Positions 6,112 through 17,221 of a stretch of 36,781 bases of DNA are shown here, piece after piece. How positions within the stretch are numbered: the first letter of the stretch is position 1; each line of letters begins with the position of its first letter. Origin of the DNA: Candidatus Moraniibacteriota bacterium (lineage in GTDB: Bacteria > Patescibacteriota > Minisyncoccia > Moranbacterales > UBA2206); assembly GCA_023261605.1 (NCBI GenBank), contig JAHFOP010000003.1, forward strand, positions 1-36,781, read 5' to 3'. The position numbers and the translations under genes were made by a program. The notes below the pieces were generated by a model. That model was not told the origin of the DNA and did no database searches. It saw only the letters and a list, made by a program, of their open reading frames with translations.

Positions 6112-6768
6112 CTATTTCCTCTCGAGCATGCTTTTTAAGTTGCCAAGTTCTTTGTTGTCAGGATTTTTTTCCAAACCTTGAGCGTTTATCCTTTTCGCTT
6201 CATCCGTTTTTCCATTATCCATAAGCATAATAATCCAATTGGAATAGGCCACCACATAGGCGCTGTTAGCTGCCACGGCTTTTCCATAATATTCTTCCGC
6301 CAATGTATAATTCTTTTGATCCCGATACAAATTAGCCAAGCCATTATAAATTCGCTCGCTGTTCGGCTCTTTTTCCAAGGCTCTAGAATACGCGTCTAGG
6401 GCTCCTTCGAAATCTTTTTGATTATATTTGGAAACCGCCAATTTATAAAGCGCGTCAACTTCATTTTTTCCGGCAGAAGCTTTCTCGAAATTTTTGGCCG
6501 CTTCATCAAATTTCCCTTCGGATAAATTACTCAAGCCTAAATTATAATTCATTTGTCTTCGCTCATCCCGAAAAAATACAAAATACGCCAAAAAAGCAAT
6601 GGCCAGAATGATTGAAATGGCCAGAGCATAAATCCACCAAGGACGATTTCCCAAATTTATCCTGAGATCGATTCTTATCTTTTGGGGAGTGGGCTTATGG
6701 TAGCCCGGCCTATGTGCGAGAACGCTTCCCAACTTTTTTTTGGCTACATCCATATTGCCTTTTATCAT
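6112..6768 (-). CDS. Single-pass membrane tetratricopeptide-repeat (TPR) protein
   Basis: Track ORF of 218 aa. It has a TM helix (WWIYALAISIILAIAFLAYFVFF) followed by about 4 TPR-like repeats (GKFDEAAKNFEKA, YNQKDFEGALDAYSRALEKEPN, YRDQKNYTLAEEYYGKAV...). It starts 26 nt downstream of the giant adhesin stop. Confidence 0.75.
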   Translation of the reverse strand: MIKGNMDVAKKKLGSVLAHRPGYHKPTPQKIRIDLRINLGNRPWWIYALAISIILAIAFLAYFVFFRDERRQMNYNLGLSNLSEGKFDEAAKNFEKASAGKNEVDALYKLAVSKYNQKDFEGALDAYSRALEKEPNSERIYNGLANLYRDQKNYTLAEEYYGKAVAANSAYVVAYSNWIIMLMDNGKTDEAKRINAQGLEKNPDNKELGNLKSMLERK

Positions 6769-6794
6769 AAATTTAAATATTAAAAATTAGTTTT

Positions 6795-14550: not shown

Positions 14551-15804
14551 TTATTTTTGCTTTAGCGCCACTAACGGATTCAGTTTTGAGGCACGCAGTG
14601 AAGGATAAATTCCGGTAATAAGCCCAATGAACGTGGAAAAAATCATGATAAAAACAATAAACCAAACTGGCGTGAAAAACATTTGCACTGACTGACCACC
14701 TAACGCTTTGGCTAAAAAATTAAATCCATAATTAGCTAAATTCGTTCCCAAAAAACCCAGTACAATTCCACCCACTCCACCTAAGAACCCGATAAGAACC
14801 GACTCGGTCAGAAATAAAAATAAAATTTCTCTTCTAGAGGCACCAATCGATCGCATTATTCCGATTTCATTGGTTCTTTCGAGCAAAGAAATAGTCATTG
14901 TGTTGAACATCCCAATGGCAGAAACGGTCAGAGATATAATGCCAAATAGCGCCAGAACTATCTGGATGATGGAAAAAATCTTATTAGTTTCATCCACTGT
15001 ATCAGTCAGCGCCATAACGGAAAAACCTTGACTCGTAACTTCGTTCCTAATCGCTTCCAAATTCGATTGGCTTTCTATCTTTATTTTTACTTCATCAAAA
15101 TAGTCCGGAGCAATTTCCCGCGTCCATCCACTTGGAATGAATCCGGAGCTTTCCGAGGGATCATCCAGGATTCCACAAATCACAAATTTCATATCCAAAT
15201 TGACCATTTCATTTTCGAATAGAAGATCTTGCTTTTCTTTTTTCCCCGGACTTTCTTTGGGAATAACGAGTGTAATTTCCACTTCTTTGCCAAGGGCACT
15301 ATTAAAATCTTCGAATCCCAAAGAAGTTAAAGTACCGGTAGATAAAATGATTTTTGCTTCCTTATCCCCCACATACCTTTCGCCGCCAGAAAGTTCAATT
15401 CCACCAAGACGAAGAAAATTCCCATCCACCGAAGAAAGTTTGGCACTACTGGTAACGCTTTCAAATTTTAATTGAGCGGAAACAATTTGTTGCGGACTCA
15501 CCTCTAAAACATTTTTCATTTGAGAAAATTTTTCCACCATTTGTTTGTCTATCTTAATTATTTGAGGGTTAGATGAAGTCACGTCAATTGTCAAAAGAGC
15601 GTCTGATTTCGCAATTTTATCTAAAAGTATTTTTTGTAAACCATAACCCAAAGAAACCAGGAACAAGGTCGTGCCGATTCCCACGCTTATTCCAAGTACG
15701 GTTAAAAATGTTCGAAGTTTTCTTGTCTTAAAATTTCTAACTGCCAGTTTCACATTGTCCGTTGCAAACATATTTTTCTTTTTTTTGAAAAAGTTACCTG
15801 CCAA
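14551..15804 (-). CDS. ABC transporter permease, MacB/FtsX family (4 TM with large extracytoplasmic domain)
   Basis: Track ORF of 417 aa. TM1 is RTFLTVLGISVGIGTTLFLV, followed by a ~230-aa loop. The C-terminal FtsX-type 3-TM bundle carries ERTNEIGIMRSIGASRREI. It overlaps the upstream ATPase gene by 11 nt. Confidence 0.85.
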   Translation of the reverse strand: MAGNFFKKKKNMFATDNVKLAVRNFKTRKLRTFLTVLGISVGIGTTLFLVSLGYGLQKILLDKIAKSDALLTIDVTSSNPQIIKIDKQMVEKFSQMKNVLEVSPQQIVSAQLKFESVTSSAKLSSVDGNFLRLGGIELSGGERYVGDKEAKIILSTGTLTSLGFEDFNSALGKEVEITLVIPKESPGKKEKQDLLFENEMVNLDMKFVICGILDDPSESSGFIPSGWTREIAPDYFDEVKIKIESQSNLEAIRNEVTSQGFSVMALTDTVDETNKIFSIIQIVLALFGIISLTVSAIGMFNTMTISLLERTNEIGIMRSIGASRREILFLFLTESVLIGFLGGVGGIVLGFLGTNLANYGFNFLAKALGGQSVQMFFTPVWFIVFIMIFSTFIGLITGIYPSLRASKLNPLVALKQK

Positions 15805-17221
15805 ATTTAAGAAGCATCATCACTTCAAACTTTCGGGAAATGTTTCTCGCGCTTCTTTTGTTCATTCCCACTCCTCCGTTTTCAAAAGGACGATCCAGAT
15901 ATTCTTGAAATTCGTTCTTGCCTATTTTTGAAAGTAACCGATATTCAATTCCCTTATTCAAAGCCGCTACCTGACTCAAGGATAATTCTCCATTATATTC
16001 TTCCAAGAGAGATTTTCTCACTTCATCGATTGTTCTTTCAAATGAGCTCTTTTTATTTTCTCTAACACCATACGCTTCTTCCTGAATAAAATCAGCCTTA
16101 ACAGCCACCTCCTCAACAAGCGCGGAAAATTTAAGCGCCGTGTTTTTATTCAATCCCACTCCGCCACTTTCAATTGAAGAATCAAATATTTCAAAAAGCT
16201 CTTCTTGGCTGATCGTTTTCAACAAGCGCCTAGTAACCGCCGCCTCCATTATTTCAATCTCCCTGTAATCAAAGTTACTTAGAAGATAAGCCACCAACAT
16301 CTTAGCCTTAAAAGGAGCCATCATCACTTGCAGTTGCATAGAAGACAAATCCGGATAGGCTTGCAACAAAAGATCCAGCTCGGTTCTCTCCTTTTTTATC
16401 CCGCCATACTCATTTTCTCCGCGGATTATCTTTCTCTGTTCATTAATTTCTATTTTTATTATTTTTCCGTCTTTCATATAAACTATGCGATCGGCATAAA
16501 ACAACTGCTCGGGATTATGAGTTACCGCTACCACAGTTTTTTTCTCATGCAGATTAAGCGAATTGAAAATTTCCAAAACATTTTGCGCCGCCTCGCTGTC
16601 CAAATTACCCGTCGCTTCATCAGAAAGCAAAATTGGCGGATCATTTATAAGCGCTCTAGCAATTCCCACCCTTTGCTGTTGTCCGCCGGAAAGATCTTGC
16701 GGCAATCTATTTTCAAAAGAATCCACATTAAATTTTTTCAAAAGAATCCGACCATTTTTTTTTCTTTCCTGCGACCGAACCCTTTTGAAAATTTGTGGCA
16801 AGATAACATTATCCAATACACTTAGAGACGGAATAAGATTATACGTCTGAAAAACCATCCCGGTTTTTTTACGATGAAAGTTATTCAGATCGTTCGAAGA
16901 AAGATGCGCCAAATTTTGTCCGTCAACAAAAATTTTTCCCACGGTTGGAATTTCGAGCCCCGCGATAATGTTCAGAAGCGTTGACTTCCCCGACCCGGAT
17001 GGCCCAAAAAAAATAATATATTCTCCGGAATATATCTCGAGATTGATTCCATCCAACGCACGGGACTCATTGTTTTTTCCGGCAAAATAGATGACACTCA
17101 AATCTTTTATTCTGATGATCGGTTTTTCTTCAATTTCATTTTGGTCATCAGGAAGATCGACAGGAGGAGTTCCTGTATTTTTCAAATCAATTGTTGTGAG
17201 AAAAGGCGAATTCATAAGCAA
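15794..17221 (-). CDS. ABC transporter ATP-binding protein (MacB/LolD/FtsE-like) with ~215-aa duplicated C-terminal extension
   Basis: Track ORF of 475 aa. It has Walker A (GPSGSGKST), signature (LSGGQQQRVGIARAL) and Walker B (ILLSDEATGNLD). Residues ~260-475 are extra and contain two related ~50-aa units centred on GGVGLNKNTA and GGVGMNKRSA, 96 aa apart. Confidence 0.85.
   Translation of the reverse strand: MLMNSPFLTTIDLKNTGTPPVDLPDDQNEIEEKPIIRIKDLSVIYFAGKNNESRALDGINLEIYSGEYIIFFGPSGSGKSTLLNIIAGLEIPTVGKIFVDGQNLAHLSSNDLNNFHRKKTGMVFQTYNLIPSLSVLDNVILPQIFKRVRSQERKKNGRILLKKFNVDSFENRLPQDLSGGQQQRVGIARALINDPPILLSDEATGNLDSEAAQNVLEIFNSLNLHEKKTVVAVTHNPEQLFYADRIVYMKDGKIIKIEINEQRKIIRGENEYGGIKKERTELDLLLQAYPDLSSMQLQVMMAPFKAKMLVAYLLSNFDYREIEIMEAAVTRRLLKTISQEELFEIFDSSIESGGVGLNKNTALKFSALVEEVAVKADFIQEEAYGVRENKKSSFERTIDEVRKSLLEEYNGELSLSQVAALNKGIEYRLLSKIGKNEFQEYLDRPFENGGVGMNKRSARNISRKFEVMMLLKFGR

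Follow-up and report, generated by a model that had tools for sequence, protein, structure and literature searches.

A recurrent pairing of tail-bearing secreted fn3 proteins with a type VII ABC transporter in a Moranbacteria contig and its relatives

We describe a candidate surface-fibre system in a 36,781-nucleotide stretch of DNA from a Candidatus Moraniibacteriota bacterium (contig JAHFOP010000003.1 of assembly GCA_023261605.1; hereafter the window, which is contig C48 of a 0.96-Mb genome that is 96.7% complete). Four co-directional minus-strand genes in the window encode an ATP-binding cassette (ABC) ATPase, a MacB_PCD/FtsX permease, a giant secreted protein with fibronectin type III (fn3) repeats, which we call the fibre, and a protein with one transmembrane (TM) helix and tetratricopeptide repeats (TPRs). 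On balance, we favour the view that the ABC pair, a type VII mechanotransmitter of the MacB/YtrF kind, and its extracytoplasmic partner form a dedicated pair, and that they share one transcription unit with a TM-TPR accessory confined to the window's clade. This proposal is built around a short C-terminal tail of the fibre, which recurs beside similar ABC pairs in relatives of the window. Labels beginning with G denote genomes, those with L loci or contigs of relatives, and those with C contigs.

A large part of bacterial diversity belongs to the candidate phyla radiation (CPR; Patescibacteria), whose members live attached to other cells. Their very large surface proteins have no sortase motifs, lipoboxes or C-terminal TM anchors, and we know of no account of how such proteins are anchored to a single membrane and operated there. 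A lineage-specific C-terminal signature together with a dedicated type VII ABC engine would be a concrete, testable answer. Our full-text literature search found no description of a tail-bearing fibre paired with an ABC transporter. A preprint on the Pam pilus of CPR bacteria concerns a neighbouring locus type, which has no ABC, FtsX or TPR components (PMC13278184).

The fibre tail and the ABC pair

The sole hydrophobic segment of the fibre is its N-terminal signal (residues 14-32, AQA/AF). The protein has no lipobox, and its single LPVTG lies internally, at residue 844, rather than in a sortase/LPXTG signal. These results bear out the sequence-only reading, which had described a signal peptide without an LPXTG, TM or lipobox anchor. 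That account lacked the conserved tail at the extreme C-terminus, which is likely to be an anchoring or recognition element and is our candidate for docking. A search with the C-terminal third of the giant returned 534 relatives at E <= 1e-10, and 78 of about 120 large homologues share a common end with the consensus SxxxTxLTPxxxxSVxQxIIxNFExxFGWxxxxx. The motif LTPxxxxS[VI]xQxIIxNFExxFGWxxK within it is near-invariant and stops 3-8 residues before the C-terminus. No Pfam or NCBIfam model matches the tail. All named records that carry it are CPR (Moranbacteria, Pacebacteria, Doudnabacteria, Berkelbacteria, and Spechtbacteria), and the fn3 giants of non-CPR organisms (KSB1, Ozemobacter, and Riflebacteria) have other C-terminal ends.

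An AlphaFold2 (AF2) model of the last 150 residues, made with 11 orthologues, places a final fn3 domain at residues 27-122 (predicted local distance difference test, pLDDT, 80-92), followed by a 7-residue linker and one unpacked helix at 130-149. The C-terminal 19-mer is not TM-like (Kyte-Doolittle value 0.35); its hydrophobic moment of 0.43, at about the 99th percentile for the fibre protein, makes it moderately amphipathic. Tail-bearing proteins range in size from ~330 to >3,000 aa; what is conserved is therefore the last fn3 domain together with the tail, not gigantism. Giant size, which features in the sequence-only reading, is not conserved.

Several fibre genes appear in pieces. A contig break seemingly divides a second tail-bearing fibre of the window's own genome: an open frame of 2,215 aa is cut off where C79 ends (13935-20582, +), and C47:1-116 (+) opens with the final 38 codons of a tail (54.8 bits). 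The next gene there is PpsA-like, and no ABC pair follows the tail. Orthologous fibre genes are split in L048 (genome G009; 3231-10779, 714 + 1,809 aa) and in L046 (4542-13324, 350 + 386 + 2,107 aa), where a frameshift, a repeat assembly error or real fragmentation could be responsible.

The ATPase encoded by the other end of the block is long, and its preferred start agrees with the database gene call (P0124). Its nucleotide-binding domain (NBD) spans residues ~35-258, with Walker A, signature and Walker B motifs at 73-80, 177-180 and 197-202, and has MJ0796, MacB and LolD as its best matches in the PDB. Beyond it lies a C-terminal extension of ~215 aa, also missed by the sequence-only reading, made of two related helical repeats that each end in LDxPxxxGGxGLNxxTAxK; the profile of this extension scores 260.8 bits at 15800-16411. 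The extension belongs to no Pfam family, and a profile search of PDB sequences found no meaningful relative (best E 0.27). Its AF2 model is all-helical (pLDDT 76.6), and Foldseek returned no match to that model (best E 0.6, TM-score 0.24). An HhH reading of the GGxGLNxxTA motif is neither supported nor contradicted by these searches. Such a two-repeat cytoplasmic domain would probably serve in regulation or scaffolding. Family ATPases of 611-775 aa (L062/G199, L080/G342, and G445:C32) match the extension profile two or three times, so the number of helical repeats varies. The tail and the extension define two unannotated sequence families that could annotate thousands of metagenomic proteins.

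The permease has a 1+3 topology, with hydrophobic segments at 32-54, 273-303, 326-356 and 371-403 and a ~220-aa ectodomain after TM1. The pair thus has the characters of a type VII system: a cytoplasmic NBD with its motifs, and a four-TM permease in which a large extracytoplasmic domain separates TM1 from TM2 and an FtsX domain forms the C-terminal part. The closest solved chain to the permease is Bacillus subtilis YtrF (9o9x, 5.5e-32), then MacB (1e-24), both aligned over the full length of the permease, and LolC, LolE and LolF are further detectable relatives. Among the NCBIfam equivalogs, none of MacB, LolCE, FtsX, DevA and L_ocin_972 reaches its cut-off for the ABC pair. For MacB the equivalog cut-off is 966 bits, and the scores are 91.8 and 186. 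The FtsX models, with cut-offs of 225-255, give 35.6-43.9 bits, and FtsE gives 172 against 265, so the pair does not classify as FtsEX. The lolCE model reaches 68.5 against 362, which, with a fibre that has no lipobox, sets the pair apart from LolCDE. Nor is it a MacAB-TolC system, as the 20 window proteins scanned include no HlyD (MacA) or OEP (TolC) family member. The window therefore holds both parts of the module that we follow below: an fn3 protein ending in the tail, and an adjacent extension-bearing ATPase with a MacB_PCD/FtsX permease.

Recurrence of the pairing across genomes

We compared the neighbourhoods of six relatives from the search with the C-terminal part of the giant and of seven loci from the search with the ATPase extension. 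The ATPase-permease-fibre-TPR block is found in L041, L042, L043, L044, L046, L048 and L052, with flanks that are unrelated between loci. In L047 and L049 the fibre gene directly follows the permease gene before the contig ends. L050 has a complete fibre with the tail downstream of its ATPase; no intact permease open reading frame (ORF) is seen between them, and the contig ends ~100 nt after the fibre. The order is permuted to fibre-ATPase-permease in L045 and L051, and this order, unlike that of the window, is the commonest elsewhere. The sequence-only reading had proposed that the ABC pair is dedicated to the fibre, a claim set to fail if relatives were not syntenic; it withstands the comparison, since the block recurs in 10 or more related contigs while its flanks change.

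Adjacency in the window would by itself be weak evidence, because all 22 of its large ORFs share the minus strand and follow one another closely. A compact one-strand genome of this kind could place the four genes together by chance. The linkage, however, recurs with altered flanks and gene orders across families and classes, and we regard chance adjacency as the least probable of the explanations considered, to be set aside with near certainty. Because relatives repeat the pairing and their fibres share the same tail, we are led to a unit of machine and partner instead. Public records assign three contigs with the window-type block to 'uncultured Bdellovibrionales' and 'Candidatus Bathyarchaeia' (L048, CAZMNQ010000022.1; L052, CAZDHE010000007.1; L051, DATGZC010000031.1); they are probably mis-binned or mislabelled Moranbacteria.

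The tail profile gave 13 strong matches in 41 related genomes. Outside genome G000, 7 of 11 matches abut or nearly abut a long-ATPase gene (in G009, G015, G018, G026, G029, G012 and G010). The tail of G017 ends its contig, the likely continuation of which begins with the ATPase, and a tail relic stands directly in front of the ATPase in G011. We extended the comparison to a class sample of 201 genomes, drawn evenly, of which 26 have the tail and 31 the ATPase extension: both occur in 22, the tail only in 4, the extension only in 9 and neither in 166 (odds ratio 101; Fisher p 2e-18, a value that overstates the case for a dedicated pair because related genomes are not independent). Two of the four tail-only genomes have weak extension matches beside the tail. 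In this sample, 17 of the 29 tails outside G000 end within ~1.3 kb upstream of an extension on the same strand, in 13 GTDB families, and one further linked tail (G144), in the window's order, lies ~3 kb from its extension. Copy numbers of tail and extension tend to match, at 2 and 2 in G000 and 3 and 3 in G190. Outside the class, the tail is found in 17 genomes and has an ABC pair beside it in seven; these linked loci include G242, where the ATPase is short and has no extension, and G425, which has the window's gene order.

A maximum-likelihood tree of 33 long ATPases and two outgroups resolves two main clades. The window-type clade (support 98/99) contains 13 other members, all of which adjoin a fibre gene wherever the contig allows a check. 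The second clade (support 96/98) comprises the ATPases of a 'core' cassette, which is present in most of the genomes searched in the order and typically sits between dxs and parA/parB or folD. Both paralogous cassettes occur in the window's own genome, the dedicated one on C48 and the core one on C7. A 664-aa secreted protein is encoded between the core ABC cassette and parA in this genome (C7:13039-15033; L025 4539-6533), with weak GH43-like, weak Pur_ac_phosph_N-like and clear CHB_HEX_C_1/Fn3_assoc matches; it does not carry the conserved tail.

Several further observations weigh against a dedicated pair. The core paralogue lies among housekeeping genes, and 13 of its 17 copies lack a neighbouring fibre gene; a fibre, tail or tail relic is directly upstream in only four of the 17; as most copies have no fibre neighbour, the cassette family is not restricted to a fibre partner. 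G019, a genome that is 100% complete, encodes giants with the tail; it has no long ATPase, and none of these giants adjoins an ABC pair. One lineage (f100/f144) has a longer tail variant, ...FAWTKNLNQFFGNIGKRLTGK, without an adjacent ABC pair. In G010 and G343 the fibre gene is separated from the ABC pair by housekeeping genes (iPGM, ComM-like). The pLDDT of the tail helix is only ~57-72. The coupling of tail and ABC pair is strong and recurrent, and it is obligatory for neither side.

In an alternative view, the ABC pair would be a general transporter with a role in envelope stress, housekeeping or immunity, like YtrEF, BceAB or the lactococcin-972 ABC. It would only be co-regulated or co-inherited with large secreted proteins and would not touch them directly. 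Such a role would fit the core paralogue in its housekeeping surroundings, the sub-threshold NCBIfam matches to L_ocin_972 ABC and DevA, and the origin of the closest solved relative, YtrF, in a stress-induced system (PMC13729185). It would also fit the seven FtsX-type permeases of the window's 0.96-Mb genome (on C7, C11, C48, C60, which has three, and C65), an unusually large share for a reduced genome; one on C60 is an FtsX-sized, 309-aa permease with its own ATPase. A general transporter leaves unexplained, however, why in 13 families the end of the gene that encodes the tail adjoins the ABC pair, why extension and tail have a patchy phyletic pattern in common and why one paralogous clade always lies beside a fibre gene. 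Moreover, the Pfam scan found no toxin or bacteriocin domain in the fibre. We consider a general transporter a distinctly unlikely account of the window's pair.

The longer tail variant (...LEETFAWTKNLNQFFGNIGKRLTGK) occurs at loci L067-L070, L072-L074 and L077 and in genomes G272, G429, G319, G397, G443 and G380. This CPR lineage has up to four giants of ~3,000 aa per genome, some in tandem. At four of the eight loci the fibre gene is followed by genes for a ~145-aa protein, a TrwB/VirD4-like ATPase and a 676-aa unknown protein; an ABC pair is present at none of the eight.

The TM-TPR protein has a narrower distribution than the tail and the ABC pair. Its orthologues (37-57% identity) follow the fibre gene in all eight assessable window-type loci, including a 194-aa gene of L044 that has no Pfam match and 40% identity. 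They occur in only 3 of the 41 related genomes, and are confined to window-type loci and G010, where the gene comes after the permease. On these grounds we rejected the protein as a core part of the system; the TPR scaffold that the sequence-only reading had made part of the arrangement is a clade-specific accessory only.

A proposed mechanism and its relation to known ABC systems

Type VII ABC systems act with dedicated extracytoplasmic partners, as in FtsEX-EnvC/PcsB, LolCDE-LolA, MacAB and YbbAP-TesA (PMC12646458, PMC7668044). The genomic coupling to a tail-bearing fn3 protein suggests that the window's ABC pair likewise acts by mechanotransmission on an extracytoplasmic partner. We propose that this partner is exported by Sec through its N-terminal signal peptide and that its last ~22 residues, a free helix with an IIxNFExxFGW-basic motif, would dock on the outer face of the permease dimer. 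The docking site could be the permease core domain or a groove at the outer leaflet, and docking would keep the fibre membrane-bound. As the long ATPase binds and hydrolyses ATP, the effect would be transmitted through the permease to the docked fibre, which as a result might be mounted, handed over or moved. In the window's clade, an external TPR domain would act as co-factor or acceptor. The positive-inside rule points to this location: the N-terminus of the TM-TPR protein is basic (10 K/R against 2 D/E, net +8), which would leave the TPR domain outside the cell.

FtsEX offers a precedent for a permease ectodomain that holds a Sec-exported partner and controls it through ATP. Its partners include EnvC, PcsB, CwlO (with SweC/SweD) and RipC, and the accessory membrane co-factors SweC/SweD parallel the window's TM-TPR protein. 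Unlike FtsEX, the window's permease has a larger core domain of the MacB type and its ATPase an extra 215-aa domain. The window's partner also differs from those of FtsEX in being an fn3 fibre without a hydrolase domain, and its recognition, if any, would be through a C-terminal helix rather than a coiled coil. In architecture the permease is closer to YtrEF (PDB 9o9x/9o9y) and MacB, which share the four TM segments and the core domain; YtrEF, too, operates in a monoderm without an outer-membrane duct. In contrast to MacAB-TolC, the window supplies neither a MacA/HlyD adaptor nor TolC, and its NBD is encoded by a gene of its own. YtrE differs from the window's ATPase in having no C-terminal extension, and YtrEF, a stress-induced system of still unclear function (PMC13729185), is not known to have a fibre partner or a tail signal at the C-terminus.

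A different role for the tail is suggested by LolCDE-LolA and YbbAP-TesA, type VII systems that pass a membrane-embedded moiety of a secreted protein or lipid to a dedicated partner. LolCDE and YbbAP-TesA pull hydrophobic moieties out of the membrane (PMC12646458, PMC8333309). After Sec export, the amphipathic tail could lie in the outer leaflet, and the ABC pair would use ATP to extract it and hand the fibre over to the wall or to a TPR acceptor, as a step of maturation or release rather than as a lasting anchor or actuator. The moderately amphipathic, surface-seeking character of the tail (hydrophobic moment as given above) and the detectable relationship of the permease to LolC, LolE and LolF are consistent with such extraction, and the TM-TPR protein could be the acceptor. 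The tail is, however, conserved position by position, including its polar N, E and G residues, which fits a protein-protein contact better than generic membrane insertion; the acceptor gene is absent from most linked loci. The window also differs from LolCDE and YbbAP-TesA in having no LolA-like or TesA-like gene nearby and no lipobox on its fibre. Extraction and release of this kind strike us as unlikely, though they deserve to be kept in view when docking is considered.

Giant repeat adhesins with a C-terminal signal are encoded beside ABC transporters in type I secretion as well (LapA/LapBCE and SiiE/SiiCDF), and the combination of such a conserved signal with a neighbouring ABC transporter brings to mind the giant RTX adhesins LapA and SiiE (PMC6272769). 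In a system of this type the tail would be a secretion signal and the ABC pair the exporter of the fibre, in line with some homologues that have no obvious N-terminal hydrophobic segment, though these are mostly fragments. Against it, the fibre has a classical Sec signal peptide, the permease has the four-TM MacB fold rather than the ABC_membrane exporter fold of type I systems, and the Pfam scan of the window proteins found no membrane-fusion or outer-membrane partner nearby; the cell plan is monoderm. Export by the ABC pair is therefore very unlikely.

The closest analogies for the tail itself are the C-terminal signals of LPXTG/sortase, PEP-CTERM/exosortase and PGF-CTERM/archaeosortase. Like these, it is a brief signature found at the very C-terminus of numerous surface proteins within one lineage; it combines a motif with a hydrophobic stretch, closes with basic residues and is tied genomically to one dedicated membrane machine. 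It departs from them in that its hydrophobic stretch, conserved at each residue, does not resemble a TM segment, and in that the linked machine is an ABC transporter rather than a transpeptidase. Tentatively, and with more doubt than attaches to the pairing itself, we suggest that the tail could represent a new class of signal by which CPR surface proteins are sorted or anchored through their C-terminus. The MacB-type transporter with its long ATPase might then be a dedicated, ATP-driven engine that mounts, and possibly extends, retracts or releases, host-attachment fibres on a single membrane, with the two-repeat ATPase domain as regulatory input. Such a system would be a type VII ABC system with a new partner type, a new signal and an extra ATPase domain, and the fibre would be a new kind of partner beside EnvC/PcsB, LolA, MacA and TesA.

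Gene boundaries and neighbouring genes

The four ORFs stand on the minus strand in the order given by the sequence-only reading (Table 1), and the 16-nt gap between permease and fibre genes and the 26-nt gap between fibre and TPR genes that it reported are exact. Its 11-nt overlap of the ATPase and permease genes exists only if the permease starts at the TTG at 15804. The ATG at 15771 is the likelier start, because homologues are 402-407 aa long and alignments begin at residue 12-20, and it gives a 22-nt gap in place of the overlap.

Table 1. Features of the four-gene block and its boundaries in the window
Feature	Position	Strand	Details
Long ABC ATPase, 473 aa	ORF 15794-17221; likelier ATG start 17215	-	ABC_tran (PF00005) 3e-34
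ABC permease, type VII (MacB/YtrF-like), ~406 aa	ORF 14551-15804; likelier 14551..15771	-	MacB_PCD (PF12704) 9.5e-16; FtsX (PF02687) 1.5e-21
Secreted fn3/Ig-like repeat fibre, 2,579 aa	6795-14534	-	Pur_ac_phosph_N 3.7e-56 (7 stretches); fn3 9.4e-36; N-terminal Sec signal
Conserved C-terminal tail of the fibre, ...FSLLTPRKQKSVIQLIISNFEDTFGWMQKMKL-COOH	6798..6902	-	35-column tail profile, 74.9 bits at 6801-6902
TM-TPR protein, 218 aa	6112-6768	-	TPR_1 7.2e-21; one TM helix 45-66; four TPR repeats
Intrinsic terminator of the upstream WxLIP/LysM gene	17361..17395	-	11-bp perfect inverted repeat AAAGCGGCTTT/AAAGCCGCTTT, 9-nt loop, then T-run
Promoter-like 13-mer TGTGGTAAAATAT, extended -10 TGgTAAAAT	17314..17326	-	~90 nt upstream of the ATPase start
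Extended -10-like element TGCTATAAT of the next gene	5972..5980	-	3' boundary of the unit

The upstream neighbour, a WxLIP/LysM gene, ends at 17414, and its terminator hairpin, read directly from the sequence, forms the 5' boundary of the four-gene unit; the consensus terminator scan omits this hairpin because its loop is longer than 8 nt. The promoter-like 13-mer noted earlier is indeed present, below that terminator, and has one further exact copy in the window, at 27157-27169, preceding another minus-strand gene. The degenerate form TGNTAWAAT occurs six times, a chance number, with three of its five minus-strand copies just upstream of gene starts. Terminator-like hairpins inside genes are likewise near chance (23 found against 14.7 +/- 3.5 expected). 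With consensus counts of promoters and terminators at about chance level, it is the positions of the elements that support the boundaries. The internal junctions are too short for a promoter or terminator, and a weak terminator-like hairpin at 6099-6114 comes only after the TPR stop, in agreement with the earlier statement that no terminator precedes the end of the TPR gene. This layout is what leads us to favour, jointly with the dedicated pair and its clade-only accessory, transcription of the ATPase, permease, fibre and TPR genes as one unit.

A 6-bp GC-rich hairpin followed by AATTTTCTCT lies at 6896-6910 (-), within the tail-coding end of the fibre gene and ~100 nt before its stop. It could reduce read-through into the TPR gene, or it could be chance.

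The next unit begins with a gene for a 156-aa protein that has an HTH_17-like N-terminus and one TM helix (5485-5955, -), followed by a second giant of >1,818 aa (3-5456, -) that runs off the contig end. An N-terminal segment similar to that of the 156-aa protein, KYLSxxEAxxYLxxxGKxYSxxYLSxLAKKGxLxAxKI, is fused N-terminally to some tail-bearing giants (P0065, P0071, and P0075), which suggests a recurring cytoplasmic helix-turn-helix-like module that is fused to giant surface proteins or encoded beside them.

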